A stretch of DNA of 64,000 nt. It comes from Chitinophagales bacterium. Lineage in GTDB: Bacteria > Bacteroidota > Bacteroidia > Chitinophagales > Chitinophagaceae. This document shows positions 3,001 through 33,729 of this stretch, piece by piece. The DNA lies in contig JACJXR010000009.1 in the NCBI GenBank assembly GCA_020636505.1, positions 4,228-68,227 of the forward strand. Reading direction: 5' to 3'. A program made the position numbers and the translations under genes. Each line of letters begins with the position of its first letter. The first letter of the stretch is position 1. The notes under the pieces are model-generated. The model did no database searches. It was not told the DNA's origin and saw nothing but the letters and a program-made list of their open reading frames with translations.

Positions 3001-6000
3001 ACCTGCCATAAGCAGTGTCACATATACCAATCCGACAACATGTAGCGGTACGGAAGGTACCATCACCATCAACGGTCTCGTGGGTGATACCACATATATG
3101 ATCACCTACATGAAGAATGGTGCCACTCAATCACCGTTGAACATTCCTACGAATGTTTCAGGTACGTTGGTGATGACCGGTTTGGGTGCGGGTACATACA
3201 CACAAATAAGTGTTGTGCTGAATAGTTGTTCGTCGGATACATTGGCTCCGATTGTACTAGATGACCCTAACGCTCCGATAGTGAATGCGTCAAACAGCGG
3301 TCCTGTATGTCAGGATAGTTTGTTACAGTTGTTTGCAACAGCAGATTCGACCGGCGTTACTTGGAGTTGGACAGGTCCAAATACATTTTCATCAACACAA
3401 CAGAATCCAATATTTACCAACCCAACACCTACGCAGAGTGGGGTATACTCTGTAACGGCTACTAAGAATAATTGTGAGTCCGACCCGGATACTACGACCG
3501 TATTGGTGAAACCAACACCAACAATACCTGTTGCCGGAAATAACGGTCCGCTGTGTGCAGGTGAAGACTTGAACTTGACAGCAACCACCATTGCGGATGC
3601 GGGTTATAATTGGAGAGGTCCTTTATCTTATACCGATACTGCACAAAACCCGGTTATCACTTCTGTGGATACATCACAAGCAGGTGACTATATCGTATTT
3701 GTTGTAGTGGATGGTTGTCCTTCTCCGGAAGATACCACCAATGTGGTGATACATCATGTGCCGGTTGTAAGTACTACATCATACACCCATCCTACCACTT
3801 GCTTAGGCTCTGAAGGAACTATTACCATAAACGGACTTGTCGGTGATACCACATATCTCGTTTCTTACTTGAAAGATGGTAACACACAAGCACCGATTGC
3901 CATTGGTACCAACGTATCCGGTACATTGGTGATGACAAGCCTGACAGCGGGATGGTATACACAAATAACTGTATCGCTGAATGGTTGTATCTCAGATACT
4001 CTTGCTCCGATATTGTTGGAAGACCCTAATGCTCCTGTGGTGACTGCATCTAACAATACACCTGTCTGCCAAGACAGTACATTCCAACTGTTCGCAACGG
4101 CAGACTCTACCGGAGTTACATGGAGCTGGACAGGCCCGTCGTCATATACTTCGAACCTGCAAAATCCAATAGTCAATAATCCAACTCCTGCAAATGCAGG
4201 TGTATATTCGGTAACGGCTACTAAGAATAATTGCGAGTCCGATCCTGATACGACAACAGTAGTGGTTTATCCAACACCGACATTCCCTGCTGCAACCAGT
4301 AACAGCCCAATATGTGAAGGCAACTCTGTATTGCTATTCTCACCAACCATTACAGATGCCAATTATTACTGGAGCGGGCCTAAATCATTTACTGATACGG
4401 TACAGAACCCGGTTTTGCCTAATGCGGATACAACATTTGCAGGAACGTATCACGTATATGTTACAGTCAATGGATGTTTGTCATTGCCGGACTCTACGAC
4501 TGTTGTTGTATTCCAGCTGCCTGCACCTATCATCGATAGTGTAATATTGGTTCATCCTTCAATGTGTAATGATAGTGATGGTAGTATTACATTGTCCGGC
4601 CTTCAGGCAAACACAACATTTGTTCTTAATTACAACCAGTTTAATCGTGCCAAAGGACCGTTGACGGTTACTTCAAACAGTTTAGGAAGAATTACTATTC
4701 CTAACCTTATTGCAGGTGATTATTCTGATATGACGCTTACCTCTCCTAACGGATGTACTTCTGATACATTGCCGGATATGGAGTTGAAAGACCCTGTACT
4801 GCCAACAATAGCTATTGATACTTTCTTCCATCCTACCACTTGTGGAGGAGCAGATGGTTCAATTGTTATTGAAGGTATGGACAACAGTGTTACGTATACA
4901 TTGAATTATCGTAAGAACACAACACCTGTTTCGGTGTCTGTAACAGCCAATGCACAGGGTAAGGTTACAGTATCGGGACTTACACAGGCAACTTACAAAG
5001 ACTTCTATTTAACCAAGTATGGCTGTGCGTCAAACGCCGTTGGTCCTGTAGACCTTATAGACCCGAATGCTCCGGTTATAAGTGTGGCAAGCAACTCACC
5101 GGTATGTGAGGGCGACACCATTAAGCTGGCGGGCTTTGCCGATTCAGCCGGTGTTACATGGAGTTGGACAGGTCCGGGCAGCTTTACTTCAAACGTGAAG
5201 AATCCGATTCGTGCCAATGCCATTCCTGCACATACGGGTATGTATTACCTGACGGCTATGAAGAACAACTGTACCTCCGAGCTTGATTCGGTGATGGTTA
5301 CTGTTCATCCTATGCCTACCACTTCCACAGCTACGAGCAATACTCCTGTTTGTTCGGGAGATTCGTTGAAACTGTTTGCAAGTACTATAACGGGTGCTAC
5401 GTATACTTGGTCAGGTCCTAAGAGCTATACTTCTTCATTGCAGAATCCGATAATCACTTTGCCGGATTCGTCTATGACCGGTGATTATATATTGTGGACA
5501 ATTGTCAACGGATGTTATTCCGAGCCTGATACCACATCTGTTACCGTATATCAAACACCTGTAATTGATAGCTATACTTTTGCTCACCCAACAACATGTT
5601 CGGGTACTGAAGGACAGATAGTCGCATACGGACTGTTTGCCAATACATCATACGGAGTAGACTATTCTAAGAACGGAATACCTGTTGCGACAAGCATTGT
5701 TACTGATGTCAACGGTAAGCTGACCATTGCAAATCTTGGTGCCGGTCTGTATACACAAGTAAGGTTTACGCTTAACAGTTGCCCTTCTGATACGTTGATA
5801 CCGATAGAGCTTAAAGATCCTAACGCACCTGTTGTGTCGGCATATACAACCACACCTACACTCTGTCAAGGTGATACTATCAAGCTGTTTGGTAATGCAG
5901 ACTCTACCGGTGTTGTATGGAGTTGGACAGGTCCTAGCTCATATACTTCTTCGCAACAAAATCCTATAATTGCCGGCGCGTTGCCGACAATGTCAGGTAT

Positions 6001-9825: not shown

Positions 9826-9899
9826 GGCCCCGTAGCTCAACTGAATAGAGCATCTCACTACGGATGAGAAGGTTTCAGGTTTGAATCCTGACGGGGTCA
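9826..9899 (+). tRNA. tRNA-Arg(ACG): tRNA-Arg, anticodon ACG
   Basis: Hand-folded cloverleaf. The acceptor stem GGCCCCG/CGGGGTC has one G-U; D stem GCTC/GAGC; anticodon stem TCTCA/TGAGA with loop CT-ACG-GA; 5-nt variable loop; T stem TCAGG/CCTGA; discriminator A. CCA is not encoded. Confidence 0.9.
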
Positions 9900-9901
9900 C
9901 T
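9886..9901 (+). repeat. attL core: TCCTGACGGGGTCACT (3' end of tRNA-Arg)
   Basis: Covers tRNA positions 60-73 plus 2 nt. It is identical to 31035-31050. Confidence 0.85.
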
Positions 9902-9955: not shown

Positions 9956-10000
9956 GGGTACAACATAGGGCAAACATTTGCATGTTTTAACTCATTTTTC
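9956..10000 (+). repeat. Left-arm copy of a ~45-bp motif shared with the integrase upstream region (candidate arm-type site)
   Basis: GGGTACAACATAGGGCAAACA-tttgca-TGTTTT-aa-CTC here versus GGGTACAACATGGGGCAAACA-aaaagg-TGTTTT-tg-CTC at 30910-30953. The first 21 bp are 20/21 identical, in the same orientation. Confidence 0.6.
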
Positions 10001-10364: not shown

Positions 10365-11375
10365 TTAGTTTAAGTACCAACAGTCATCAGAAGAATCCAG
10401 GGCATGTTGTAATTGTGACACTAACTCAAAGGCATTTACGTTCCTATCCATAAAGTAGTCCACATATGAGCTCTTGTTGGCATTTGTGAACAGATTGTAC
10501 AGCTTCCATAGATTAATGCTCCCATCTGGTGAACTACAGAAGCTATTATCAGAGTAGTAGTCTTTACAGACTGTATTGATCTGACTATCCCCGAACATAA
10601 GGTCCGGTAGTTCCTTTTTCTTCTTTTCAGGCATGTGCCTGTACATTCTGCATCTCCCCACAAGGTTAGCAAACTGCCTTTCTGAGATACTATACTTACT
10701 AAACAAGCCATACAACCTTGACAATTCAACAGCATCGTAGTCTTTAAGAAGCATAAATATGCCGTTATATAGCTGATTGACATTATTTACCCTGAGGTTA
10801 GATAAGTAACCATCTGTAGCTACACACAGGTTAGTACATACCATATTCTTAAAGCCTATAAATACTTTAAAATGTTGGTCTGATGTGGACTTGTTGTATA
10901 GGTTGTCAAGGTTGTATGCCTTTATTCCCCCTACGGTCAGGTTAAGTTTACAACCATCTACTTCTGTTGTTATGGTAGGTATCTCTACTGTAAATGCCAT
11001 ACGCTCGTAATAGATAGTCTTTTCGTGCTCTTTGAGGGCTTTTGCAGGCTTATCCTTTGCTTCCGGCACTCTTCCCTTAACTGGATGAGATATGCGTATT
11101 ACAGGGCTTAAAACAGTCTCTGTAGGGAATACTGCTTTAACTGCCTTAATAGTTGTTTGTATGAACTCAGTATGGCTTATTACGGGCTCATTGTCTTTGA
11201 TGAATACAGGAATGATATGCCCCTTCTTGAGCTCGTTGAAAGTAGCTGAGACAGTGTTAGCTTCTATGAAATGCTGATTGGATGGTACAACCTGTATCTC
11301 ATTTACAACTTCCTGTAACGCAGCAGCTATATGTTTTGACCCATGGGGACTATTGTTATCTGTTAATATGTCCAT
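10365..11375 (-). CDS. DUF3871/DUF932-like phage/plasmid-associated protein
   Basis: The ORF runs to a GTG at 11513, but the ATG at 11375 (MDILTDNN...) limits overlap with the upstream gene to 20 nt. The FKVFIGFKNMVCTNLCV segment resembles the DUF932/DUF3871 core as I recall it. The family assignment is from memory only. Confidence 0.6.
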   Translation of the reverse strand: MDILTDNNSPHGSKHIAAALQEVVNEIQVVPSNQHFIEANTVSATFNELKKGHIIPVFIKDNEPVISHTEFIQTTIKAVKAVFPTETVLSPVIRISHPVKGRVPEAKDKPAKALKEHEKTIYYERMAFTVEIPTITTEVDGCKLNLTVGGIKAYNLDNLYNKSTSDQHFKVFIGFKNMVCTNLCVATDGYLSNLRVNNVNQLYNGIFMLLKDYDAVELSRLYGLFSKYSISERQFANLVGRCRMYRHMPEKKKKELPDLMFGDSQINTVCKDYYSDNSFCSSPDGSINLWKLYNLFTNANKSSYVDYFMDRNVNAFELVSQLQHALDSSDDCWYLN

Positions 11376-12234
11376 TGGCTTGTGTGTTTTGTACGGTTGA
11401 AGAATTGGTTTGTAATTGTAGTTGGTGCTTACGTGCTGTAAACTCTGTTTGTAGGGCTTGTTGGAGCCCAGGGTATGTGTTGTATAGTTGTGTAAGCTCA
11501 GGTATTGAACCACATCCCTGGATCCTTTCGATAATGGAGTTAATCAACTGTTCCCTGGACACTTGTTTACCCTCATTGCACCAATCAAGTATCTGTTTAC
11601 CTGTTTCTACGGTAGGTATGAACTCAGGCTTACCAAAGAATAGCTGTGTCCTGTCCTTAGATACTCGTGCATGTAAGTTTGTATCAAGGTCAAATACGAT
11701 AGTAAATTCGTAGTCAAGACCTTCTCTTTGCACTCCTTTAAGTCCTACTTTTTCAGGAACCATCTTACCGTTCTTGTCAGATAACACATAATCCTGTTTG
11801 GCTCGTATAGTTCCTATAACATGTACATCTGATTGTAGCATAGCATTGACAAATGCATTGTGACGTGGTGTAACCTTATTCCAGTTAGTGAAAGAGTTAC
11901 CGACCATCTTGGCATGTATATCAAGTATAGTTTCCCATTCGTGTGTAAGACTGTCGATAATAATCACAGAAACACCTCCCTGGATGCATACATTGATAGC
12001 TTGTATGTAACGTTCTGGACTGAATGGAGGCTCTAAGTGCAGCACTTTGAAGTTGCCCACATCGCTATACAATTCAGAGCTACGATTCTCTGTATCTATA
12101 ACAGCAATCTTATCCCAGGACCCACACAGTCCATAAGCTATGTACAAAGCGGATTTGGTCTTGCCTGAACCAGACGGTCCTTGTAAGGCACATTTTATCT
12201 TTACTTTCTTTCGTGAAGCTGTATTTAACTGCAT
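11356..12234 (-). CDS. AAA_24 / Sak4-like RecA-fold ATPase (phage-type recombination/replication accessory protein)
   Basis: Walker A GPSGSGKTKSAL, then IAVIDTENRS, and Walker B VSVIIIDSLTHEW. Size (292 aa) and layout are typical of PF13479-type phage ATPases. Confidence 0.75.
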   Translation of the reverse strand: MQLNTASRKKVKIKCALQGPSGSGKTKSALYIAYGLCGSWDKIAVIDTENRSSELYSDVGNFKVLHLEPPFSPERYIQAINVCIQGGVSVIIIDSLTHEWETILDIHAKMVGNSFTNWNKVTPRHNAFVNAMLQSDVHVIGTIRAKQDYVLSDKNGKMVPEKVGLKGVQREGLDYEFTIVFDLDTNLHARVSKDRTQLFFGKPEFIPTVETGKQILDWCNEGKQVSREQLINSIIERIQGCGSIPELTQLYNTYPGLQQALQTEFTARKHQLQLQTNSSTVQNTQANGHINR

Positions 12235-12309: not shown

Positions 12310-12648
12310 CTATGCAACCGCAAGCTCTTTACTCGTGTCTGGAATATTAGCAACACCCTCGGGCTGATAATCCCAGGTATGTGCCAACATTATCACTTCA
12401 CCTGTTTCAGGCATAGTGTACTCGTAAGGTTCGCATTGCTTACGAACAATGTTTCCAGGCATTTCCTTACCGACCATACGTTTTGCCGTTATTTCATCGA
12501 AAGTGGATGAAACAAAGCATCTACGTGATGTCGCATAGAAACGTCCTGTGTTTTGAGATTGAACCATCTCAATGTCTCCCATTAACTCAAGGGAAATGAA
12601 GTTTCCTTGTTCGCCTTCACGAACATGATAATTTGCTACAATGATCAT
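12310..12648 (-). CDS. Hypothetical protein (112 aa), first gene of the minus-strand module
   Basis: Clean ORF with an ATG start at the head of the Sak4/DUF3871 operon. No motif I can name; a single-strand-binding partner of Sak4 is only a guess. Confidence 0.55.
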   Translation of the reverse strand: MIIVANYHVREGEQGNFISLELMGDIEMVQSQNTGRFYATSRRCFVSSTFDEITAKRMVGKEMPGNIVRKQCEPYEYTMPETGEVIMLAHTWDYQPEGVANIPDTSKELAVA

Positions 12649-17730: not shown

Positions 17731-20700
17731 ATGCTTAACAGAGTCATACATTATTTTCTGCATAACAAACTGGTAACGGTATTGGTATTAGTGCTGTTTG
17801 TAGCATGGGGCGTGGTAACTGCTCCCTTTGGATGGAAAGTAGGTGCACTACCATCAGACCCTGTTCCTGTAGATGCGATACCTGATATTGGCGAAAACCA
17901 ACAAATAGTTTTTACTAAATGGCCGGGACGCTCGCCCCAGGATATAGAAGACCAGATCACATACCCGCTAACAACCTCTTTGTTGGGTATCCCGGGGGTG
18001 AAGTCAATACGTAGCTCCTCTATGTTTGGGTTTAGCAGTATCTACATCATTTTTGATGAAGATATAGAGTTCTATTGGTCACGTTCCCGCATATTGGAAA
18101 AGCTCAATTCTCTGCCATCAGGTTTATTGCCCGATGCAGTGCAGCCTTCCTTAGGTCCTGATGCCACAGCTCTAGGGCAGGTATATTGGTACACATTGGA
18201 AGGGAGAGACAAAGACGGCAATCCTACTGGCGGTTGGGATTTACATGAACTTCGAACTGTACAGGATTTTTATGTAAAGTATGCACTTAATGGTGCTGAA
18301 GGAGTATCAGAAGTAGCTTCAATTGGTGGCTACGTACAGGAATATCAGGTGGATGTTAATCCTGATGCATTGAAGGCTTATAACATACCGTTGCACAAAG
18401 TGATGTTAGCGGTTAAAAACTCGAACAAGGATGTAGGTGCTAAAACAATAGAAATTAACAGAGCTGAATATCTCGTACGAGGCTTGGGGTATATCAAATC
18501 TATCGAAGACCTTGAATTGGCAGTTGTTGACGTACACGATAATGTGCCGATACGTATAAAAGATATTGGTGTTGTAACTACTGGCCCTGCTACTCGCAGA
18601 GGGTTGTTGGATAAAGAAGGTGCTGAAGTAGTTGGCGGTGTTGTGGTTACTCGTTACGGTGCAAATCCTTTGGAAGTCATCAACAACGTAAAAGATAAGA
18701 TTCAGGAAATAGCTCCGGGATTACCTAAGAAAACAATTGCAGATGGACGGGAAAGCCAATTGACTATTGTCCCTTTTTATGACCGAACACAATTGATCTA
18801 TGAGACTTTGGGCACGTTAGAGGAAGCATTATCTCTTGAGTTACTGATTACTATTCTAGTTGTTGTGATTATGGTGCTGAACCTGAGAGCTTCAATAATA
18901 ATTTCCAGTTTATTGCCATTAGCTGTGTTGATGGTTTTCATCGCAATGCGGTATTTCGGTGTAGACGCAAATATAGTTGCCCTGTCAGGAATAGCTATAG
19001 CTATTGGAACAATGGTTGACCTGGGAATAGTTTTATCTGAGAATGTCATCAAGCATATTAAAGAATCTTCCCAAGGACAAAAGCTGATTGATACAGTCTA
19101 TAACGCATCTGCTGAAGTAAGTGGTGCAATAGTAACAGCCGTAACTACAACTATTGTGAGCTTCATACCTGTATTCACCATGCAAGGTGCTGAAGGTAAG
19201 CTCTTCCGTCCGTTGGCTTTTACTAAGACATTTGCTTTGTTAGCTTCATTAGTAGTCGCATTATTGATATTGCCAACTATTGCACACTGGTTGTTTGGCG
19301 TTAAGCTTGATAAAGGTAAGCGCAGTAAAGCATTTAATATTATTCTGATTGTAGCAGGGTTGTTATCATTCATTTTTGTAAATGCTTGGGCTGGTTTAAC
19401 CTTAATAGCTTTTGGTATAGGTTGGTTTGTAACGGAATACAGCAAAAAGGATAATTTCTTAACCCGAAACCTGCCTATCATCATTACAGTAGTATCAGTA
19501 ACGTGGATATTGGCTCGGTACTGGATGCCATTAGGTGCAGGAAGGTCGTTATTCGTCAATTATATATTCGTCGCAGGCATCGTCGTTCTAATACTCTTGT
19601 TCTTTTATCTGCTTGAAAGGTATTATGAACGTATACTGAGTTGGTGTCTTGCTAATAAGCGAAAGTTCTTGATGATACCTGCTGTACTCATGTTCTTTGC
19701 ATTAAATATCTGGGTAGGTTTTAATGCAATGTTTGGTTTTGTAGCCAAAGGCTTTGATGCTGTTAATGTTAATATCAGAGCGACTAAAGTGTGGTCGGGT
19801 CTGTCTCATACCTTCCCCGGCATTGGTAAAGAGTTTATGCCTTCACTGGATGAAGGCAGTTTCTTGTTAATGCCAACATCCATGCCTCATGCTGGTATTG
19901 AGCAGAACAAGCAGGTTGTACAGCAACTTGATATGTTGGTGGCTAATATTCCCGAAGTAGATCAGGTAGTCGGTAAAATGGGACGAGCAGAGTCAGCTTT
20001 AGATCCTGCACCTATATCCATGTATGAGAATATCATTAACTACAAACCTGAATACATGATTAATGCCAAAGGGCATCGTGTCAGATATCAAACAGACGAT
20101 GAGGATAGGTTTGTATTGGTTAATGGAGATACTTTAAGCAATGAAGATGCTATAAAACAAGGTGTAAAGCAGTCGATGCTAATTGAAGATGAAAACGGAC
20201 AATACTTCAGAAATTGGCGAAGCCACATACATTCTCCTGACGATATATGGAATGAGATAACACAGGTGAGTCATATTCCCGGCATGACATCTGCACCTAA
20301 ACTACAACCAATAGAGACAAGGCTAGTGATGTTGCAGACAGGTATGCGTGCTCCTATGGGGATTAAAGTATATGGGCCTGATCTGGAAACAATAGAAGAC
20401 TTCGGATTGAAGTTGGAAGAAATACTAAAACAAGTGCCATCTGTAAAGAAAGAAGCTGTATTTGCAGACCGTATAGTGGGTAAGCCTTACATGCATTTGG
20501 ATATAGATAGAAATGCAATAGCTCGTTACGGATTAAGTGTAGAAGAAGTGCAACGTTCTATTGAGACTGCTATTGGCGGTATGCAAATTACCTCAACAGT
20601 TGAGGGAAGAGAACGGTATCCTGTTCGTGTACGTTACCCTCGTGAGTTAAGAGATGATCCAGAAAGTTTATCACAGATACTGATACCCACACCAACAGGT

Positions 20701-21525
20701 GTACAGATACCTTTAGGCGACCTTGTGGAAATTGAATACGTAAGAGGCCCGCAAGTCATCAAGAGTGAGGAGACATTTCTTACAGGCTATGTATTGTTCG
20801 ACAAAAAAGACGGTCAGGCAGAAGTGAATGTTGTAGAAGATGCACAGCGAGTGATACAGCAAAAGATAGATGAAGGTGCGTTAATAGTACCAGCAGGTGT
20901 CAATTACAAGTTCTCAGGTAGTTATGAGAATCAGGTTCGTGCTGAAAAAAGGCTGTCTGTTATTGTTCCATTGGTGCTGCTTATCATATTCCTGATACTG
21001 TATTTCCAGTTCCGCTCTGTGAGTACATCGCTAATGATATTTACGGGTATAGCTATGGCGTTTAGCGGAGCATTCCTGATGCTATGGTTATATGGTCAAA
21101 ACTGGTTTGTTGACTTCTCTATTTTCGGTACTAATATGCGTGACCTTTTCCAGATGCACACGGTTAACTTAAGTGTTGCAGTATGGGTAGGTTTTATAGC
21201 ACTTTTCGGCATTGCTACAGATGACGGTGTGCTCATGGGTACTTATCTCGACCAAAGTTTCAAGAATAATAGAACTAATACAGTAGCGGAAATAAGAGCA
21301 GCTGTTACAAAAGCAGGATTAAGGAGGATAAAACCTGCGATCATGACCACTGCAACAACCATCATTGCATTGTTGCCGGTACTTACATCCACAGGGCGTG
21401 GCGCAGATATTATGGTACCGATGGCTATACCTGCTTTTGGTGGCATGATCATCGCATGTGTTAGTTATTTCATTGTCCCTGTTTTGTATAGCTACAGGGA
21501 AGAACGAAAACTTAAAACAAAGTAA
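17731..21525 (+). CDS. CusA/CzcA-family heavy-metal efflux RND transporter (enlarged, 1264 aa)
   Basis: N-terminus MLNRVIHYFLHNKLVTVLVLV..., then PDIGENQQIVFTKWPGRSPQDIEDQITYPL and the EFMPSLDEGSFLLMP second-half start. Overall a 12-TM RND layout. Confidence 0.9.
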   Translation: MLNRVIHYFLHNKLVTVLVLVLFVAWGVVTAPFGWKVGALPSDPVPVDAIPDIGENQQIVFTKWPGRSPQDIEDQITYPLTTSLLGIPGVKSIRSSSMFGFSSIYIIFDEDIEFYWSRSRILEKLNSLPSGLLPDAVQPSLGPDATALGQVYWYTLEGRDKDGNPTGGWDLHELRTVQDFYVKYALNGAEGVSEVASIGGYVQEYQVDVNPDALKAYNIPLHKVMLAVKNSNKDVGAKTIEINRAEYLVRGLGYIKSIEDLELAVVDVHDNVPIRIKDIGVVTTGPATRRGLLDKEGAEVVGGVVVTRYGANPLEVINNVKDKIQEIAPGLPKKTIADGRESQLTIVPFYDRTQLIYETLGTLEEALSLELLITILVVVIMVLNLRASIIISSLLPLAVLMVFIAMRYFGVDANIVALSGIAIAIGTMVDLGIVLSENVIKHIKESSQGQKLIDTVYNASAEVSGAIVTAVTTTIVSFIPVFTMQGAEGKLFRPLAFTKTFALLASLVVALLILPTIAHWLFGVKLDKGKRSKAFNIILIVAGLLSFIFVNAWAGLTLIAFGIGWFVTEYSKKDNFLTRNLPIIITVVSVTWILARYWMPLGAGRSLFVNYIFVAGIVVLILLFFYLLERYYERILSWCLANKRKFLMIPAVLMFFALNIWVGFNAMFGFVAKGFDAVNVNIRATKVWSGLSHTFPGIGKEFMPSLDEGSFLLMPTSMPHAGIEQNKQVVQQLDMLVANIPEVDQVVGKMGRAESALDPAPISMYENIINYKPEYMINAKGHRVRYQTDDEDRFVLVNGDTLSNEDAIKQGVKQSMLIEDENGQYFRNWRSHIHSPDDIWNEITQVSHIPGMTSAPKLQPIETRLVMLQTGMRAPMGIKVYGPDLETIEDFGLKLEEILKQVPSVKKEAVFADRIVGKPYMHLDIDRNAIARYGLSVEEVQRSIETAIGGMQITSTVEGRERYPVRVRYPRELRDDPESLSQILIPTPTGVQIPLGDLVEIEYVRGPQVIKSEETFLTGYVLFDKKDGQAEVNVVEDAQRVIQQKIDEGALIVPAGVNYKFSGSYENQVRAEKRLSVIVPLVLLIIFLILYFQFRSVSTSLMIFTGIAMAFSGAFLMLWLYGQNWFVDFSIFGTNMRDLFQMHTVNLSVAVWVGFIALFGIATDDGVLMGTYLDQSFKNNRTNTVAEIRAAVTKAGLRRIKPAIMTTATTIIALLPVLTSTGRGADIMVPMAIPAFGGMIIACVSYFIVPVLYSYREERKLKTK

Positions 21526-24546: not shown

Positions 24547-26571
24547 ATGGAACACAATCATCATAAACATCACGAACACCACCATAATCACAAAAATGCA
24601 CATGCTGGTCATGAACATAGTGGACAAGGGCATCATGGTCATGATCATAATGCCATGATAGCTGATTTTAGAAAGCGTTTTTACATCGTATTGGTATTGA
24701 CTATTCCAACTATGTTGCTTTCTCCGATGATACAGCATTGGATGGGTGTTGAATGGTCTTTTACAGGTAGTGAATACCTTTTATTCGCTTTGTCATCCGT
24801 CATATTTGTGTATGGTGGCTGGCCATTCCTTTCAGGTCTTGTAAATGAACTCAAAAGTAAGAGCCCGGGAATGATGACATTGATAGGTTTTGCTATCTCT
24901 GTAGCATTTATTTACAGCAGTGCCACTGTGTTTGGACTTGAAGGTTCTGATTTTTTTTGGGAACTGGCAACTCTAATACTCATTATGCTATTAGGACACT
25001 GGATAGAGATGAAATCAGTAGCAGGTGCGTCCAAGGAATTAGAAATGCTGGTCAAGCTAATGCCATCTGAAGCACATTTAGTAAAAGGAGATACTACAGA
25101 AGAAGTGAAAACAGATAGCCTGCAGCCGGGTGATGTTATATTAATTAAGCCAGGTGAAAAAATTGCAGCAGACGGGATAATCAAAGATGGTAGTTCTCAT
25201 ATTAATGAATCGATGCTGACAGGTGAATCAAAACCTGTATCGAAAGAAAAAGGAGACAAAGTAATAGCAGGTTCCATCAATGGTAACGGAGCTATAAAGG
25301 TTGAAGTCTCTCATGGAACTAAAGACTCATATTTGTCACAGGTTATAAAGCTTGTTAGTGATGCCCAAAAGAGCAAATCAAAAACACAATTAATGGCAGA
25401 TACTGCCGCAAATTGGTTGACCATTATAGCTATAGTGTCTGGTATTACTACTTTTTTGGCGTGGTACTTATCAGGTCATGATCTTGCATACTCGATGGAG
25501 CGAATGGTAACAGTAATTATTATCTGTTGTCCTCATGCGCTTGGGCTTGCAGTGCCTTTAGTTGTCGCACGTTCAACAACTATTTCGGCTAAGAATGGTC
25601 TTTTGATAAAAAACAGAACCTCATTTGAGAATTCAAGAAAAGTAACAACTGTTGTCTTTGACAAAACAGGGACACTGACAATTGGAGAGTTTAAAGTTGT
25701 TCGTTTTAAAGCGTATACAGATTCGTATTCTGATGATGAGGTATTGGCGTTAGCCGCAGCAATAGAAGGCAGCTCAGAGCATCCTATTGCGGTAGGTATC
25801 GTTAATAAGGCAAAAGAGAAAGGATTACCTGTTCCTAAAGTGCAAGATGTTGAAGCTATTACAGGAAAGGGTATTTCAGCTAAATATGACAATAAAGAAG
25901 TACACATAGTTAGTCCAGGCTACCTCAAAGAAAAAAATATTACAATACCTGAACAGCAAGATGATGCTACTACACAGGTCTATATCCTTATTGATAATGA
26001 ACTTGCAGGAACTATAGCATTAGCGGATGAAATAAGAGAAGAGTCATATGAGGCGATTGATGAATTGAAGAAAGAAGGCGTAAAAAGCATGTTGTTAACA
26101 GGTGATAACGGTAAAGTCGCAAAGGCTGTAGCTGATAAATTGGGTATGGAAGATTTTATTGCAGAAGTTTTACCACACCAGAAGTTGGAACATATAAAAG
26201 ACTTGCAGGGTAAAGGAGAATTTGTAGCCATGACAGGTGATGGTATCAATGACGCTCCTGCATTAGCACAGGCAGATATAGGAATTGCGATAGGGTCAGG
26301 ATCTGATATTGCTGCTGAAACAGCAGGGATAGTGTTAGTGAACAGCAATCCTAAAGACGTGACCGGGTTAATTAAGTTTGGTAAAGCTACTTACAGGAAA
26401 ATGATACAAAACCTGATATGGGCAACAGGATATAATGTGATAGCTATGCCGGTAGCGGCAGGTGTGCTTTATAGTTGGGGTCTTATTCTCAGCCCAGCTG
26501 TAGGTGCTGTTTTAATGACTGTGAGTACAGTGGTAGTTGCTATTAATGCAAGTTTGTTGAAGGTGAGGTAG
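24547..26571 (+). CDS. copB: Heavy-metal (copper) P1B-type ATPase, CopB-like (CPH motif, His-rich N-terminus)
   Basis: 16 His in the first 37 aa. Motifs are TGESKPV, CCPHALGLAVP (CPH), FDKTGTLT and MTGDGINDAPAL. Confidence 0.85.
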   Translation: MEHNHHKHHEHHHNHKNAHAGHEHSGQGHHGHDHNAMIADFRKRFYIVLVLTIPTMLLSPMIQHWMGVEWSFTGSEYLLFALSSVIFVYGGWPFLSGLVNELKSKSPGMMTLIGFAISVAFIYSSATVFGLEGSDFFWELATLILIMLLGHWIEMKSVAGASKELEMLVKLMPSEAHLVKGDTTEEVKTDSLQPGDVILIKPGEKIAADGIIKDGSSHINESMLTGESKPVSKEKGDKVIAGSINGNGAIKVEVSHGTKDSYLSQVIKLVSDAQKSKSKTQLMADTAANWLTIIAIVSGITTFLAWYLSGHDLAYSMERMVTVIIICCPHALGLAVPLVVARSTTISAKNGLLIKNRTSFENSRKVTTVVFDKTGTLTIGEFKVVRFKAYTDSYSDDEVLALAAAIEGSSEHPIAVGIVNKAKEKGLPVPKVQDVEAITGKGISAKYDNKEVHIVSPGYLKEKNITIPEQQDDATTQVYILIDNELAGTIALADEIREESYEAIDELKKEGVKSMLLTGDNGKVAKAVADKLGMEDFIAEVLPHQKLEHIKDLQGKGEFVAMTGDGINDAPALAQADIGIAIGSGSDIAAETAGIVLVNSNPKDVTGLIKFGKATYRKMIQNLIWATGYNVIAMPVAAGVLYSWGLILSPAVGAVLMTVSTVVVAINASLLKVR

Positions 26572-26704
26572 CAATTCAATTTTACTTTGCATAGCTCTGA
26601 GAATATATTATTCAGTTCATTCCACCTGCAGCAACCTTACGTTTTCATCAATGTTGATTATAACCTTCACTGTATATGATTAATCAACTAATCAATCCTG
26701 TTCT

Positions 26705-26730
26705 ATGTAAGAGTACAATAACGCTATATA
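26705..26730 (+). repeat. Iteron-like motif pair, copy 1 (ATGTAAGAGTACA + AATAACGCTATATA)
   Basis: AATAACGCTATATA at 26717-26730 recurs exactly at 26863-26876. ATGTAAG(A/G)GTA recurs at 26879. Confidence 0.5.
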
Positions 26731-26862
26731 ATCCCAATATATATAAACTGAAAGCTGCTGTTAGCGTATAACTATAACTGTTTTACAATTAATAGTATGC
26801 TATTGCTATTTAAGCCTCGCCCTAGGGTAAGTTTATTATATCTGTTAATCTTGTAGAGAATT

Positions 26863-26892
26863 AATAACGCTATATATTATGTAAGGGTAACA
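26863..26892 (+). repeat. Iteron-like motif pair, copy 2 (AATAACGCTATATA + ATGTAAGGGTAACA)
   Basis: The same two half-motifs as at 26705-26730, in swapped order, 146 bp downstream. Confidence 0.5.
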
Positions 26893-27084
26893 AGTATTTC
26901 AAAAGGTAAAAAGAGGTGAAAATACTATGTATCTGCCACCTTTGCTTTATTACTTCGATATACTATGGCATGACTAATTATTTTCAGTTAAGCATTCTAA
27001 AGTCATTAAGCATATTCAATTATAACCTCAGGATAAACCCCGGCTATCCCTTATATTTGCATTACTGCATCACCAAAAGCAGTA

Positions 27085-27210
27085 CGAGAACATAGAAACT
27101 TAGAAAGAAACGTATCAGCAAGAGAAAGAAAGAAAGAAGAAGTAGCAGAACATTCCACAGAAGAAGAAACACTAGAGAAGAATCACATAAAAAAATCAAG
27201 CCGAAGAAAA
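27085..27210 (+). other. ~125-bp strongly purine-rich (A/G) tract on the + strand
   Basis: Reads ...GAGAACATAGAAACTTAGAAAGAAACG..AGAGAAAGAAAGAAAGAAGAAGTAGCAGAA..CAGAAGAAGAAAC..AGAGAAGAA..AAAAAATCAAGCCGAAGAAAA. It contains no ORF of 60 aa or more. Confidence 0.7.
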
Positions 27211-27295
27211 TTTCCTAACACCTCAATCACAGTTCGACTGTGCATTTTTATGAATTTAAACATGGATTACCTGTGGTTGACAACACAGATAACAA

Positions 27296-28798
27296 ATGAA
27301 GTTTGAGATACCTTCTAACTTGAAGGTGAAACGCATCGTTTTTGATGCTGATGAAAGGAGTAATGATATCGCCATAGATAAGCTCCATTATGTATGCCAC
27401 ATTATTAATCGGTTAATGCTTCGTCTTGATGATGATATGCGTTATAACGGATCAGACTATAAGTATGGTGTGCCTCTTAATAGCAGAGCCTTAAGAAAGG
27501 CACTTGGTAGACGGTACAGAGATACAATTGACGTGCTTATAGAGCATGGTATTATTGAAACCAACGATGTGTTTGAAGTAGGTAAAACTAGTAAGCAATA
27601 TAGGTTTACTGAGCAGTATAGGTATAGTAGCACCAAGTATGTAGCACCGAAAACAAACAAGTATAGAGAATTCTCTATTCCCCAAGGGGCTGTTAAAATC
27701 GATGCTTCTACTTTCTATGATGTGAGGTTAGTAAAAAGGGTGCAGAAAATGTTTGTCGGGCTGACTATAGATGTAATAGCAGCAAACTCTTGGGTTGATA
27801 AATATTATGAAGAGCAGCGTCAAGTGATTATATCTGCCAAGAACAAAAAAGCTATACAACGCAAGCTGAAAGAACTTGTTATAAAATGTAATGGTTATAG
27901 AGAGAGTATCAGGAAGGTACACGTCAAAGAAGCCTCTTTTGTACAAGATGCGTTTGGGCATAGGTTGCACACGCCTTTAACAAGACTAAAGAAAGAACTA
28001 AGACAATTTGTCAGATATGATGGTATGCCTCTTGTTGAGATTGATATTGCAAACAGTCAATTATTCTTTATGATACCTCTTCTTCAGTGGAAAATGTATC
28101 ATCCACAAGCTGGAGGAGGGGAGAAAAATACTTTTAAACATAGAATATGGATAGGAGAAGACCAAAGAGAGACATATAGGAATACCATTATGTGGTGCAA
28201 AGAGGTTGAAATGCAATATAGTAAAGGCTTACAGGAGATAAGTTTTGTCTCCGATGCATGCAAAGGAATTGTATATGAACGTGTTGCCCAATATCTGAGT
28301 GCTAGTGGATACTTTAAAAACGAGGAGGCGAAAGAAGAAAAGAGAGCGCATGTTAAGAAGTATCTACTAAAGTTGATTTTTGCTTCACCAACAAAAAACT
28401 ACAGCATGTACAATGCAAGCATTGGAGCCATATGGGATGCTTTTAAGGCTTGTTATCCAGAGATAGGTAAATTGGTTATCTTGATAAAGGGAGTAGATTA
28501 TAAGGCAATATCAAGGCTGTTACAACGCATAGAGAGCTACTGCATAATAGGTAGTGTTTGTAAGATAGTAAATGATAAAAATGCTGACATCCCATTATTT
28601 ACATTGCATGATTGCATTGTTACAACAGATAATTATGTTGAAACTGTGGAGAAAGAGCTATTAGGTATTATTACAGAATTGATTGGGTTTACACCAACCG
28701 TTAAGAGGAAGGTGTGGAATGTGAAGAAAACACAGTTTACTATGTTAAAGAATTACATTGACCGTATAAGTAATTTGATAAGAAAAAGGGCCGCATAA
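27296..28798 (+). CDS. Hypothetical 500-aa protein: N-terminal winged-helix-like region plus C-terminal region with family-A/T7-like polymerase motifs A, B and C (candidate element replicase)
   Basis: Motifs are GHRLHT (aa 221-226), LVEIDIANSQLFFM (D250), R350-x3-K354-x3-L358-x3-F362 and LFTLHDCIV (H438-D439). These are by-eye motif matches only. It is certainly a coding ORF; the function is inferred. Confidence 0.5.
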   Translation: MKFEIPSNLKVKRIVFDADERSNDIAIDKLHYVCHIINRLMLRLDDDMRYNGSDYKYGVPLNSRALRKALGRRYRDTIDVLIEHGIIETNDVFEVGKTSKQYRFTEQYRYSSTKYVAPKTNKYREFSIPQGAVKIDASTFYDVRLVKRVQKMFVGLTIDVIAANSWVDKYYEEQRQVIISAKNKKAIQRKLKELVIKCNGYRESIRKVHVKEASFVQDAFGHRLHTPLTRLKKELRQFVRYDGMPLVEIDIANSQLFFMIPLLQWKMYHPQAGGGEKNTFKHRIWIGEDQRETYRNTIMWCKEVEMQYSKGLQEISFVSDACKGIVYERVAQYLSASGYFKNEEAKEEKRAHVKKYLLKLIFASPTKNYSMYNASIGAIWDAFKACYPEIGKLVILIKGVDYKAISRLLQRIESYCIIGSVCKIVNDKNADIPLFTLHDCIVTTDNYVETVEKELLGIITELIGFTPTVKRKVWNVKKTQFTMLKNYIDRISNLIRKRAA

Positions 28799-28809
28799 GC
28801 AGCCCTTTT
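28784..28809. terminator. Hairpin overlapping the stop codon of 27296-28798, between convergent genes
   Basis: AAAAGGGC...GCCCTTTT stem with an inner GC/GC pairing, followed by a T-rich run. Confidence 0.5.
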
Positions 28810-29000
28810 ATTACATTCGAATATGCAAATTGCTATACCATCTCACCTCGTTTCAGCGTTTCACAGGAGAAATCAATGTCTCACTATGTATATCTGATAA
28901 TTTATCATTTTCATGCGTTGTAGAGCTATAGCCTTGGTAAACAAAGTGTGTTGCCAATAGGTAGTAACAAGCTTTACCTTTTGCGTTATCATTCTTATTC

Positions 29001-29402
29001 TCAACCATTTTTATGACTATTTATAAACTGTTCAACATGCTCCTTTGTATATAGGTATTTTCTGCTTCCTGGAGCTTTTACAAATCCGATATAACCATTA
29101 TCACGATACTTCTGTAATGTCTTGCGACTTACTTTCAACATGCGGCAAACTTGTGCTGTATTGTAGTATTGTGTTTCTTCAGCATGTTCTTTGCTGAAAT
29201 GTTGAAGAATAAACTGCTTAACCGCAGTGATTACTTCTGGGCTGTCTAAAGCCTGTAACACCTCATCTTTTACATAGACGTTACCTAGTGCATCTACATA
29301 TGCACCTTTCTGTTTCCCTTCGTCGAGGTATACCTGTAGCCTTTGTTCAGGCATACCTAGACGTCTGGCTAATGCCAGTTTCTCATTCTTGTTTTTAGGC
29401 AT
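29001..29402 (-). CDS. Excisionase-family / MerR-like helix-turn-helix DNA-binding protein (Xis candidate)
   Basis: The C-terminal half reads YYNTAQVCRMLKVSRKTLQKYRDNGYIGFVKAPGSRKYLYTKEHVEQFI, which fits the excisionase-type HTH pattern. It lies next to the integrase. Confidence 0.7.
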   Translation of the reverse strand: MPKNKNEKLALARRLGMPEQRLQVYLDEGKQKGAYVDALGNVYVKDEVLQALDSPEVITAVKQFILQHFSKEHAEETQYYNTAQVCRMLKVSRKTLQKYRDNGYIGFVKAPGSRKYLYTKEHVEQFINSHKNG

Positions 29403-29672
29403 AATAAACCTGTTAGTACTGCTTCATAGCAATACATGTTAATTAATACAACATGTAAGACTACCACGCCGTGCTGTGGTAGAATCCGTATGCTTGGGTA
29501 TACTGATACTGTAAGTATACACCTAAACAAATTCAGCCTTACAGCAATATCAGACTGAACCTGTCAATGAAGCCCCACTAATGCTCAAGAGATTGAGCTT
29601 TTAGGTTCTAAGTGGAGTAATACGACTATTGTCGTATAGCAAAACTATGTTTCTGCTTTGTTTTTACAAAAA

Positions 29673-30884
29673 TTATTCATCAAACGCTTTCATAGACTGA
29701 TCCAAGTCGGCATTGACGATCTTAGCGTAAATAAGAGTCTCTCGTATGTTTGCATGGCCTAATAGCTTTTGTACATGTTCTATAGGTATTCCTCTTCGCA
29801 GGGCATTTGTTGCAAATGAGTGTCTGCTAACGTGAAAGGAAAGATTTTTATTAATATCTGCTTTTTTCGCTATTGATTTCAGGTTCTTATTGATCTTAGC
29901 AGTAGCTAAAGTAATTGCTTTGTCTAGCTTAACAGGGTCTGCTTTTGTAATATCCTCATGCAAGCATGCGAATACATAGTCGTTCTCTTCGTTTCCTTTA
30001 GCCCTGTATCTGTTTAGGATATTCTGAGCGACTTTAGGCATGTATATAGTAGATTGAACGCCTGTCTTCTGAATAACAATGTTTATATGCTCTCCGGATA
30101 TGTTCCCCCATTTCAGTAATAACACATCTGATACTCTCAGTCCACATGCATAACATGAAAAAATGAACATGTCACGGTGTTTTTGTAGTCTAGGGCTGTC
30201 CGATAGGTCCAAATGCATGATAGCATCGATCTCATGTTGAAGAAGATACGCTCTCTCTGTTTTTGCTGATCTTAAGGTTATCTTTCCAAAAGGGTTGTCC
30301 CTTTGCTCGATTAGCCCTTCCTTGACTGCTGTATTAAATACCTGACGGATGAATTTAAGATTACTGTGAACGGTACTGGCAGAGTTGCCAATAACTTTAA
30401 CCATATACCTTTCGTATTTCTTGATAAAACTTACGTCAATATCTGTAAATGCATAACTGTCTTTTCCAACATACTTTTTTAGTTTAGCAATTACAGATTT
30501 CGTTCGATCATATGTACCTATTTTACCTTTTGCATAATATCCGTTAACAATACTGTTTGCGACTGCGAAAAAGTCTTCATTGCTGGTTCCGTTCAAGGTT
30601 GCTTTTATCTCTTTAACGCTGACATGAAGGTCTTTGCTCTCTGTCTTCAAGAGACTATTAAGGATAGCAGTTTCTTTCGTTCTAAGCATATTATTCATAC
30701 GAACACTATTTGGGTGGGTAGTTTTCACGACCTTTCTTTGGTCATCCCAGAATCGCTCTTCTATTCGTATGCCAGTTGCAATATTTGTACTTTTTCGGTT
30801 TTTAATTATCCTGAAATAAAGGGGTAGTGTTCCTTTCTTGTTTAGCTTATCCTTTCTTAGTACTAGTTGTATAGATGATGCCAT
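29673..30884 (-). CDS. Tyrosine-type site-specific integrase
   Basis: Start chosen at MASSIQLVLRKDKLNKKGTLPLYFRI, the typical Bacteroidota integrase N-terminus. Catalytic pattern: GLRVSD (R), HVSRHSFAT (H-x-x-R), LLGH and TLIYAKI (Y). Confidence 0.9.
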   Translation of the reverse strand: MASSIQLVLRKDKLNKKGTLPLYFRIIKNRKSTNIATGIRIEERFWDDQRKVVKTTHPNSVRMNNMLRTKETAILNSLLKTESKDLHVSVKEIKATLNGTSNEDFFAVANSIVNGYYAKGKIGTYDRTKSVIAKLKKYVGKDSYAFTDIDVSFIKKYERYMVKVIGNSASTVHSNLKFIRQVFNTAVKEGLIEQRDNPFGKITLRSAKTERAYLLQHEIDAIMHLDLSDSPRLQKHRDMFIFSCYACGLRVSDVLLLKWGNISGEHINIVIQKTGVQSTIYMPKVAQNILNRYRAKGNEENDYVFACLHEDITKADPVKLDKAITLATAKINKNLKSIAKKADINKNLSFHVSRHSFATNALRRGIPIEHVQKLLGHANIRETLIYAKIVNADLDQSMKAFDE

Positions 30885-30909
30885 AATTAAATTATTTCTG
30901 TAAAAAAAG

Positions 30910-30953
30910 GGGTACAACATGGGGCAAACAAAAAGGTGTTTTTGCTCCTCAAT
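30910..30953 (+). repeat. Right-arm copy of the ~45-bp motif (partner 9956-10000), in the integrase upstream region
   Basis: See 9956-10000. It also forms an imperfect palindrome, GGGGCAAACA-aaaagg-TGTTTTTGCTCC. Confidence 0.6.
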
Positions 30954-31034
30954 AATGCCTATTGTTACTCGATAAAAAATATTAATATGATTGCTGAGAG
31001 AGGAATACAGTAAATCAAAGAGTAAGAATGGGTA

Positions 31035-31050
31035 GGAAGTGTTTTCCTGA
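31035..31050 (+). repeat. attR core: TCCTGACGGGGTCACT
   Basis: Exact copy of 9886-9901. No tRNA body precedes it. Confidence 0.85.
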
Positions 31051-31060
31051 CGGGGTCACT

Positions 31061-31088
31061 TGATGATGAAGCCCACCGCAAAGCGGTA
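31061..31088 (+). terminator. Hairpin + T6 immediately right of attR (likely the original tRNA-Arg terminator)
   Basis: GCCCACCGC-aaa-GCGGTAGGGC (one bulged A) followed by TTTTTT. Confidence 0.65.
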
Positions 31089-31295
31089 GGGCTTTTTTCT
31101 TTGTGTGAACCAAACTTGTTGTAGCGAAACAAAGAAGAAGAAGCCCTGTTGAGACCCGCGACTGGATAATTCCACAACTTGTGGAGAGCTCACCCTACAA
31201 TAAAATCATATTCATTATTTTAATGTCAAAATAGCTAGAGTACCACTTAAGGGAAATACTTATACCCCCTTTAAGTGATTTATTAATTGAAAAAT

Positions 31296-33102: not shown

Positions 33103-33729
33103 ATGAATCAAAAACAACAACGCTTCGTTACGGAGTATCTCCGCATTGGGGATAAGGTCATCGCCTACCGTATAGCTTACCAAACACGTTCCACCAACTT
33201 GCGCTCATTGGAGTCTGCCGTTAATCGATTACTGAACGACCCCGAAGTGGCCAAAGCTATTTCTGATGTACAGTCGCGCATACGTGCAGATGTGGAGCAG
33301 GAGCTTAAAGAAGAATTCCGCAGAGAACTATTGAGCGTTCAGCGCAAGCGAGAGCTGTTGGCCGCCATCGCTACAGGCGATATACTGGTCGAGCAGCATT
33401 ACAAAGGCAAAGGATGTGCTACTTGCACACAACTAGTAAGGCCAACCATCAACCAAATGCTCAAAGCCATAGATATAGACAGTAAGCTGGCAAGGCATTA
33501 TACAGTCAATAAGCCCGCAAGCAAGACGGATACCATTCAACCTGTAAAGCCCCTTAAGGAGCATAGGGTAGAGCAGCCTGAACCTACACCAGTACAAGGT
33601 GATATTGCCGCTGAACAAGAGTTGGGAGTCATTACAGACGAAAAATTGCATAGGTTCATATGCCCTGAGGTAAGCAACACAAGGACAATTGCCCTAGTTC
33701 CTACCAAACAGTACCAACAATTGGAATAA
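33103..33729 (+). CDS. Phage terminase small subunit-like protein (Terminase_2-type N-terminus), orphan
   Basis: N-terminus MNQKQQRFVTEYLRIGDKVIAYRIAYQ...SAVNRLLNDPEVAKAI matches the QxRFxxEYL...A...AGY...A..LL..P.V pattern of PF03592-type TerS. A TATATTTG box lies at 33065-33072. Confidence 0.65.
   Translation: MNQKQQRFVTEYLRIGDKVIAYRIAYQTRSTNLRSLESAVNRLLNDPEVAKAISDVQSRIRADVEQELKEEFRRELLSVQRKRELLAAIATGDILVEQHYKGKGCATCTQLVRPTINQMLKAIDIDSKLARHYTVNKPASKTDTIQPVKPLKEHRVEQPEPTPVQGDIAAEQELGVITDEKLHRFICPEVSNTRTIALVPTKQYQQLE

Follow-up and report, generated by a model that had tools for sequence, protein, structure and literature searches.

What does the 500-amino acid (aa) protein encoded at positions 27296-28798 of a 64,000-nucleotide (nt) stretch from a Chitinophagales bacterium (GenBank GCA_020636505.1, contig JACJXR010000009.1, positions 4,228 to 68,227; hereafter the window) do for the mobile element that carries it? 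The sequence-only reading, an earlier inspection by eye, had recognized motifs of a family-A or T7-like single-subunit polymerase in this protein, which we call POL, and had left it without a family name. Our analysis suggests that POL is a minimal family-A polymerase of the TV-Pol type and that its role is likely to be that of the origin-binding primase-polymerase of an excised island. POL is a core gene of this island, which spans 21.2 kb (9901-31060) and is inserted in a tRNA-Arg gene. The open reading frame (ORF) is intact, running from ATG to stop over 500 codons on the plus strand, and the residues that had been singled out lie where they were placed: GHRLHT at aa 221-226, D250 at nt 28043-28045 (GAT), the helix R350-AHV-K354-KYL-L358-KLI-F362, and H438-D439 at nt 28607-28612 (CATGAT). 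The identical protein on the public record is a hypothetical protein of a Chitinophagales metagenome-assembled genome.

The AlphaFold2 model of POL, which was built on an alignment of 21 sequences, has a mean predicted local distance difference test (pLDDT) score of 81.8 and a predicted template modelling score (pTM) of 0.78, and its low-confidence parts are confined to residues 130-138, 265-310 and 478-481. In topology, the model corresponds to the polymerase domain of family-A enzymes. In the model, a winged-helix-like domain is followed by a thumb, the hairpin bearing R223, a palm with D250 and D439, and short fingers, and these parts are located in the window as follows.

27296..28798, plus strand: POL, gene of the 500-aa TV-Pol-like minimal family-A polymerase (ORF; model and Foldseek; conservation in 161 homologues)
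27296..27715, plus strand: N-terminal domain, aa 1-140, winged-helix-like, putatively DNA- or origin-binding (separate model, Foldseek, hhalign)
27773..27922, plus strand: predicted thumb, two long antiparallel helices of aa 160-179 and 184-209 (DSSP of the model, pLDDT ~90; fits the bihelical thumb of TV-Pols and Pol I, PMC2579912)
27941..28006, plus strand: predicted beta-hairpin with the invariant R223 (GHRLHT; strands 216-217 and 224-225), then R236 (ELRQF), which pairs with Pol I R682 (weak, P=0.28)
28025..28066, plus strand: predicted motif A, in which the strand of aa 244-251 ends in D250 and is followed by N-S-Q (hhalign pairing of D250 to D705 and of Q255 to E710)
28343..28381, plus strand: predicted fingers O-helix, R350-x3-K354-x3-L358-x3-F362 (hhalign to R754/K758/F762/Y766 of Pol I and R518/K522/Y530 of T7 DNA polymerase)
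28523..28534, plus strand: LQRIE motif (Q410, E413); Q410 pairs with Pol I Q849, and LLQRIE is identical in MAP_030 of phage Ma-LMM01
28598..28627, plus strand: predicted motif C, a beta-hairpin (strands 435-437 and 440-444) whose turn holds H438-D439; these two residues pair with H881-D882 of Pol I and IHDS of T7 RNA polymerase

The R350-F362 helix is contained in the helical region that forms the fingers of the model, and an additional strand is found at 469-473. Judging from the topology, D250 and D439 would be juxtaposed in the palm.

When we searched the model against the PDB using Foldseek, all of the 50 best matches were family-A DNA polymerases (E 1.6e-5 to 8e-4, probability 1.00), including Aquifex and M. 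smegmatis Pol I, Klenow, Taq, Bst, the Plasmodium apicoplast polymerase and human Pol theta. The structure comparison thus upholds the family-A-type polymerase proposed from the motifs, and it gave no sign of an unrelated fold. In the viral structure library BFVD, the best two matches were proteins of 403-409 aa with E values of 8.5e-19 (TM-score of 0.79 to the target) and 1.1e-14, one of which is named 'Putative DNA polymerase I'. The next ranks were phage proteins of ~400-450 aa and many Pol A enzymes, and the named matches listed were family-A DNA polymerases, 'uncharacterized' proteins or T7-like RNA polymerases (ranks 33 and 50).

We then compared a 141-sequence POL profile with a Pol A profile of 12 diverse sequences, including those of E. 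coli Pol I, T7, SP6, T5-like, ICP1, rV5-like and N4-like polymerases, in which R668, D705, R754, K758, Q849, H881, D882 and E883 are invariant and Y766 is kept in 11 of 12. The best hhalign match aligned aa 317-473 of POL with Pol I 714-918 (P=0.013), pairing R350 with R754, K354 with K758, L358 with F762, F362 with Y766, Q410 with Q849, H438 with H881, D439 with D882 and C440 with E883, and placing F383..P388 of POL opposite the YFERYPGV segment. A second, colinear match (P=0.28) paired R236 with R682, D250 with D705, and Q255 with E710. In addition, comparisons with single sequences recovered the same motifs, namely motif B for T7 DNA polymerase and motif C (IHDS) for T7 RNA polymerase. Since these hits are colinear, coincide with the catalytic motifs and are in line with the structural match, which was obtained independently, we accepted the residue mapping, in which the equivalences to D705, R754/K758/Y766 and H881-D882 already drawn by eye reappear. 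POL therefore resembles Pol I and T7 DNA polymerase in its right-hand fold, in a YFxRYPGV-like segment and in its equivalents of R682, D705, R754, K758, Y766, Q849, H881 and D882. It differs from Pol I in having neither a 3'-5' nor a 5'-3' exonuclease, in its length (500 versus 928 aa for the E. coli enzyme), and in its fingers, which are rearranged in the model and contain the low-confidence insert 265-310. The absence of exonuclease motifs had been noted from the sequence, and Pfam, NCBIfam and PHROGs likewise detected no exonuclease domain in POL.

In order to judge conservation, we compared three alignments of 21, 141 and 161 sequences. The largest, made with MAFFT, contains 161 homologues with a median length of 492 aa and identities to POL of mostly 22-35% (about 25%). 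R223, D250, Y327, E413, H438 and D439 are kept in all 161 sequences, and K354 (160/161), Q410 and R236 (158/161 each) and Q255 (156/161) are nearly invariant. Position 350 is Arg in 138 sequences and Lys in a further 10, and position 362 is Phe or Tyr in 150 (Phe in 91, or 57%; Tyr in 59, or 37%). Since these residues are fixed despite ~22-35% overall identity, the putative active site of POL is under strong purifying selection, and its motifs are not a product of chance. The conservation that the sequence-only reading had called for at the two Asp residues and in the R-x3-K helix is therefore present. In an exhaustive phmmer search, 1.84 billion cluster representatives were screened, and the relatives of POL, counted as representative clusters at 50% identity, numbered 3430 at E<=1e-3 and 1423 at E<=1e-10. 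The relatives are typically 450-600 aa long, the records of the clade that we encountered are annotated as 'hypothetical' throughout, and further word-indexed searches with POL added almost nothing new.

The lack of a family name in the sequence-only reading is understandable, because the sequence libraries find nothing for POL; a fitting family has nevertheless been published. The TV-Pols were defined in 2008 by Iyer, Abhiman and Aravind as 400-600-aa proteins of transposons and viruses, Bacteroidetes included (PMC2579912). They consist of a minimal family-A core with a bihelical thumb, a beta-hairpin whose Arg is absolutely conserved, an RRM-like palm with two Asp residues, and fingers based on a helix-turn-helix (HTH), which are inserted after the first palm strand and carry an RxxxK motif plus a conserved Asp (PMC2579912). 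Nucleases are never fused or linked to them; a D5-like helicase is fused or adjacent, or an extra N-terminal domain is present beside a lambda-type integrase, resolvase or transposase (PMC2579912). TV-Pols have been predicted to be primase-polymerases, and their ancestors have been proposed to possess both DNA and RNA polymerase activities (PMC2579912). POL shares with them the two-helix thumb N-terminal to the palm, the beta-hairpin with an Arg (R223) and the two palm Asp (D250 and D439), each present in 161/161, the lack of a fused or recurrently linked nuclease domain, and an N-terminal domain together with integrase linkage (37/51 loci). The fingers of POL contain RxxxK (R350 in 138/161, K354 in 160/161); their invariant residue is Y327, next to E/D328, and a conserved Asp was not identified among them in the 161-sequence alignment.

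Microcystis phage Ma-LMM01 is named among the hosts of TV-Pols (PMC2579912). Its protein MAP_030 (506 aa) adjoins two genes annotated as transposase, which we took as the IS605-type pair of that report on the basis of the sequence records, and it shows the same R...R...D...K...LLQRIE...HD pattern as POL. An hhalign comparison of POL with the MAP_030 family gave P=4.8e-4 and a probability of 32% over 201 columns, which extend from the N-terminal domain through the thumb to the Arg hairpin, and a relaxed alignment is colinear through D250/D264 and LLQRIE. We consider it quite probable that POL belongs to the TV-Pol family. The kind of enzyme is thus already known, being minimal, family-A and integrase-linked with Bacteroidetes members noted in 2008 (PMC2579912), and the expectation that such a protein would be unusual is not sustained. 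Neither Pfam nor NCBIfam has a model for the clade of POL itself, which also lacks biochemistry.

The N-terminal ~130 aa had been proposed to form a winged-helix domain of the kind found in plasmid initiators. We modelled aa 1-140 separately (pLDDT 85.3), and the 50 best Foldseek matches in the PDB were all winged-helix DNA binders, including ArsR/BigR, MarR, Fur/PerR, CodY, TubR, TFE-alpha and ScpB, but the best E value was only 0.05. The highest query TM-scores (0.40-0.45) were those to the N-domains of staphylococcal plasmid RepA initiators (4pql, 4pt7), and the domain resembled winged-helix proteins in this search, not DEDD exonucleases. The proposal is therefore consistent with the model, in which every one of the best matches agrees, but it is not statistically proven.

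It is of interest which genes accompany POL in other genomes. We scanned 185,579 species genomes with a 12-sequence POL alignment and obtained 56 POL loci, almost all from Bacteroidota (Chitinophagales, Flavobacteriales, Cytophagales, Sphingobacteriales and Bacteroidales). Neighbouring families were collected by tblastn with the window proteins and by all-against-all clustering of adjacent ORFs. The sole recurrent families were POL (51 loci), integrase (37), AAA_24 (19) and DUF3871 (19), and no nuclease was among them. The integrase linkage, a survey of which had been proposed, is thus found in 37 of 51 loci, and in 21 loci the integrase gene is convergent with POL and at most 300 nt from its stop codon. 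Compact elements, as in Chryseobacterium sp. JAH, have the order DUF3871-AAA_24, POL, int, which is also present in the window element but interrupted by cargo. AAA_24 and DUF3871 proteins are ~50% identical across loci in which POL is ~25% identical (including L001, L008, L010, L015 and L017 of our scan), and their partnership with a polymerase is not described in PMC2579912 or PMC10061031.

The nearest relatives of POL retain the order POL-(DUF5131)-xis-int. In close relatives, an XRE/HTH_3 regulator gene often lies directly upstream of POL (L103 2316-2549, L002 9502-9756). No match to this regulator was found by tblastn in the window element, and the control of POL may therefore differ here. 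In another close relative (L104 1-3635), the element lies beside a pair of DnaE2-like (PHP/DNA_pol3_alpha) and ImuB-like (IMS) genes and a SRAP gene.

POL homologues were further found in 28 viral contigs of IMG/VR, jumbo phages of 270-390 kb among them, in unannotated metagenomic phage records of 595-735 kb, and on two Hymenobacter plasmids. The Hymenobacter tibetensis plasmid homologue adjoins a resolvase fragment and a KilA-C antirepressor gene, a trio that has also been described for the TV-Pol element of Brucella. The neighbours of the phage versions are just DUFs. The phage-borne proteins are shorter, ~395 aa (L080, L082, L083, L087-L089, L093, L096 and L100). A family of ~1300-aa ORFs lies at most 6 kb from POL in nine viral contigs, directly downstream in L088, and a representative of it had no Pfam match; a sigma-70-like gene is found near POL in some viral contigs.

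In the window, the island is delimited by two copies of a 16-nt core, and its GC content is 0.34-0.41 between these repeats versus 0.43-0.47 outside. Its features other than those of POL are listed below.

9886..9901, plus strand: attL, the 16-nt core TCCTGACGGGGTCACT, which is the 3' end of the tRNA-Arg gene at 9826-9900 (tRNA call, direct repeat)
10365..11375, minus strand: DUF3871 protein, candidate partner (Pfam PF12987, E 9e-113; the start codon is a chosen one; with POL in 19 loci)
11356..12234, minus strand: AAA_24 ATPase, RecA-like and Sak4-like, candidate partner (Pfam PF13479; PHROG 1366 and Sak4-like PHROG 124; with POL in 19 loci)
12310..12648, minus strand: S112, a small 112-aa protein heading the gene string S112-AAA_24-DUF3871 (43-57% identity in 7 other loci)
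26572..27295, plus strand: non-coding region ahead of POL, which may hold a promoter, leader, operator or origin (purine tract, -7 box and conserved blocks)
29001..29402, minus strand: excisionase-like HTH_17 or MerR-type gene (Pfam PF12728, E 2.7e-13; PHROG excisionase families; a 72% identical homologue at the same position in L004)
29673..30920, minus strand: tyrosine integrase with Arm-DNA-bind_5, SAM-like and catalytic domains (Pfam)
31045..31060, plus strand: attR, the second copy of the 16-nt core, then the displaced tRNA terminator (direct repeat)

The genes of DUF3871, AAA_24 and the 112-aa protein, all on the minus strand, adjoin attL, and the string is headed by S112 in the window and in L031. 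S112 has no Pfam family and no PDB match, and DUF3871 has no PHROG or PDB relative. The cargo consists of a permease, a protein sorted by the type IX secretion system, an AraC regulator, a large ORF (17731-21525), an outer-membrane efflux protein (OEP), a CusB/HlyD-type membrane-fusion protein and a P-type ATPase. With its Cus-type efflux and P-type ATPase cargo, the island is a heavy-metal-resistance island. The cargo is followed by the 724-nt non-coding region, POL, the HTH_17 gene and the tyrosine integrase gene next to attR; the xis and int genes that had been noted beyond POL are both in place. Downstream of POL, no same-strand gene follows, only a DUF5131 remnant and xis, and no helicase family was detected.

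The DUF5131 (Gp37/Gp68-like) remnant lies between POL and xis at 28868-28957 on the minus strand (tblastn, 43% identity over 30 aa, E 2e-4), and intact copies of 261-285 aa occupy the matching place in the two closest relatives (L103 and L104). A 21-nt direct repeat, GGGTACAACAT(A/G)GGGCAAACA, occurs at 9956-9976, just inside attL, and at 30910-30930, near attR and directly upstream of what is probably the true start of the integrase. From their positions, these repeats are candidate arm-type binding sites of the integrase. Outside the island, a 2852-aa ORF fills positions 8-8566 of the window (plus strand), and a terminase small-subunit-like ORF (33103-33729, plus strand; PF03592, E 3e-6), which adjoins DUF7683 and DUF983 genes, lies ~2 kb past attR and may be the remnant of another mobile element.

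The non-coding region upstream of POL had been described as iteron-containing and purine-rich. The purine-rich tract is real (82% purine over 60 nt, beginning ~210 nt upstream of the POL ATG), and (AGAA)4 is found at 27123-27138. The repeats that were found are two-copy and 12-17 nt long, and they do not support the iteron reading. A Bacteroidetes-type -7 box, TAtaTTTG, can be read by eye at 27052-27059, and the segment 27027-27090 that holds it is 84% identical to a Flavipsychrobacter locus (L004). The purine-rich tract at 27070-27215, downstream of the -7 box, is probably a 5' leader of ~220 nt. The homologous stretch of L103 is called as a 75-aa ORF. Closer to the gene, positions 27210-27333, which extend into the start of POL, are 93.5% identical to L103 2768-2889, while the POL proteins are 60% identical. 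A hairpin, CACAGTTCGACTGTG, lies at 27228-27242 and is followed by a T-run, and a near-palindrome, CTGTGGTTGACAACACAG, which lies at 27271-27288 (8-25 nt ahead of the POL start codon), is retained in the form CTGTG-N9-ACAG by 4/5 relatives. The conserved block and the palindrome are candidates for an operator, a leader or translational control structure, or an origin element. No Rfam family was found in a scan of 26000-31200.

An A-family polymerase in a comparable setting has been characterized in staphylococcal SCCmec by Bebel et al. in 2020. CcPol, which Iyer et al. counted as a TV-Pol, is an active A-family polymerase together with its small partner MP; CcPol-MP makes DNA primers de novo from dNTPs on single-stranded DNA and forms, with the Cch2 helicase, a replication module next to the recombinases of SCCmec (PMC7581432). 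This biochemical demonstration of an A-family primase-polymerase on an integrative element likewise tells against the expectation that POL would be unusual (PMC7581432). Rice extended such PolA-SSB pairs (SSB, single-stranded DNA-binding protein) across the Bacillota in 2023; in this type, the gene of a small OB-fold SSB subunit directly follows that of the polymerase and a helicase is also encoded, and the polymerases related to CcPol keep part or all of a 3'-5' exonuclease fold, while vestigial, RRM-only 'Pol' partners also exist (PMC10061031). POL and CcPol-MP are alike in that an A-family polymerase lies beside a site-specific recombinase of an integrative element, and in an aspartate-based active site, which CcPol requires (PMC7581432). 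They differ in that CcPol needs a separate OB-fold subunit, MP, for single-stranded DNA binding and priming, whereas POL has its own winged-helix-like domain, and in that CcPol is found in Bacillota with a helicase and serine recombinases, whereas POL is found with a tyrosine integrase and no linked helicase. Pipolins (piPolB), casposons (PolB) and elements with primase-polymerases of the archaeo-eukaryotic primase (AEP) superfamily likewise bear an integrase and their own priming or polymerizing enzyme (PMC10061031, PMC2579912), but the folds of these polymerases are of family B or AEP and are unrelated to POL.

Based on the analogy with CcPol-MP and on the prediction made for TV-Pols, we suggest that POL would initiate and extend DNA on the excised circle, and that it probably primes and copies the 21-kb integrated island. 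Int and Xis would excise the island as a circle. The N-terminal domain would then bring POL to the circle, for which the conserved stretch just ahead of the POL gene is a possible site, and the polymerase domain would begin DNA synthesis de novo with dNTPs and/or extend primers. The RecA-like AAA_24 ATPase, DUF3871 and the 112-aa protein may, speculatively, assist POL in those elements that have them, the 112-aa protein conceivably as an SSB/OB-fold analogue of MP, and replication would be finished by the host replisome or by POL itself. The analysis shows the fold and domain order of POL, the conservation of its catalytic residues, the boundaries of the element and the linkage of the genes, whereas in this scheme we infer the catalysis of POL, its use of dNTPs or NTPs, its priming and origin binding, and the roles of its partners. 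It is a more tentative and rather doubtful idea that a single polypeptide combines origin recognition through the winged helix, de novo priming and DNA synthesis, and with an integrase alone forms a self-replicating integrative module smaller than any other known in Bacteroidota, with AAA_24, DUF3871 and the small beta-rich protein as a new accessory set that replaces, in some elements, the helicase and SSB of other TV-Pol and CcPol systems.

Several observations weigh against a TV-Pol-type replicase. Pfam, NCBIfam and PHROGs gave no meaningful match to POL, including the profiles PF00476 and PF00940 that had been suggested for it. PF00476 did not match even at E<=10, so that POL lies below the Pfam gathering threshold. 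No PDB sequence was matched by phmmer with POL, and the 141-sequence family hidden Markov model found zero PDB chains at E<=10. The TM-scores of the model to PDB polymerases are 0.3-0.41, and the P-values of the profile comparison with Pol A are weak (0.013 and 0.28). The steric-gate E710 of Pol I corresponds to Gln in POL, and E883 to Ser or Cys. The extra N-terminal domain of TV-Pols is all-helical by prediction (PMC2579912), whereas that of POL is alpha/beta in the model. Most TV-Pols as well as CcPol have a linked helicase, whereas POL has none and its recurrent partners are AAA_24 and DUF3871 instead of a D5-like helicase. The identification of MAP_030 with the published Ma-LMM01 TV-Pol is our own assignment, and its shallow profile of 6 sequences gave no significant hhalign match to Pol A. 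Finally, both Hymenobacter plasmids encode Rep and ParA proteins of the conventional kind, so that POL is not the only replicase there. For the same reason, we rejected an identification of POL as a plasmid Rep.

We need to consider that POL could instead be a miniature T7-like DNA-dependent RNA polymerase, which would transcribe the genes of the element or make RNA primers for the host replisome. Motif C of POL reads HD-S/C, like IHDS of T7 RNA polymerase and not HDE of Pol I, and the R-x3-K-x7-aromatic helix and the palm/fingers core are shared with the PF00940 enzymes, two of which are among the viral fold matches. The Gln at E710, the Ser or Cys at E883 and the mix of Phe and Tyr at Y766/Y639 therefore make an RNA polymerase or RNA primase conceivable as a minority reading, and a dual activity has been proposed for the ancestral TV-Pols (PMC2579912). 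DNA polymerases, however, rank above RNA polymerases in both fold searches (PDB and BFVD), and with 500 aa, about half the size of T7-like RNA polymerases, POL is too small for a promoter-opening N-terminal domain or a specificity loop and has no PF00940 match. At the place of Y639 in T7 RNA polymerase, 91/161 homologues have Phe and 59/161 have Tyr. The Y639F substitution is known to relax the selectivity of T7 RNA polymerase for ribonucleotides. In addition, the one characterized relative, CcPol-MP, primes with dNTPs only (PMC7581432), and we regard an RNA polymerase as unlikely. It is also unlikely, in our judgement, that POL is an active polymerase with a non-replicative task, be it gap filling, translesion synthesis or a part in defence or conflict with AAA_24 and DUF3871. 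No helicase or recognizable origin is linked to POL, the mutagenesis cassette of L104 stands beside a close relative, and jumbo phages and plasmids with replication genes of their own carry homologues; but PADLOC gave nothing credible for POL, AAA_24, DUF3871 or S112 (best E ~1e-3, over short stretches), and POL is paired repeatedly with an integrase at the end of the element whatever the cargo, as expected of a core maintenance gene.

A Rep-like, DNA-binding initiator with a catalytically dead polymerase fold would account for an N-terminus that resembles plasmid RepA N-domains among other proteins, and polymerase partners reduced to the RRM are known (PMC10061031). Catalytic and nucleotide-binding residues are, however, kept across 161 divergent sequences, which is unexpected for a dead enzyme and makes this reading very improbable. 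Even less credible is a chance resemblance of motifs in a non-polymerase, such as a relaxase or another DNA-processing enzyme: no sequence database model matches POL, but the fold matches are uniformly family-A in two libraries, the best hhalign match spans motifs B to C in order with a weaker colinear match (P=0.28) over motif A, and neither an HUH signature nor any other sign of a relaxase was seen in POL. A relaxase or HD-phosphohydrolase reading of the His/Asp motifs was also considered and was dropped after the fold search.

As a class, a TV-Pol-type polymerase is no conceptual surprise, since such enzymes were predicted in 2008 and a relative was characterized in 2020. The value of the finding lies in a very large clade for which Pfam and NCBIfam have no model, in the DNA-binding domain that is probably fused to the polymerase, and in the repeated partnership with AAA_24 and DUF3871. 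POL offers biochemistry and engineering a compact family-A enzyme with a core of ~360 aa, which is possibly self-priming, and it provides a testable case of a winged-helix domain turning a primer-dependent polymerase into an initiator. The clade extends across integrative islands of Bacteroidota, plasmids and jumbo phages. Its identity as TV-Pol-type would mark thousands of 'integrase-only' islands as probably replication-competent once excised, and this bears on the persistence and spread of resistance islands.

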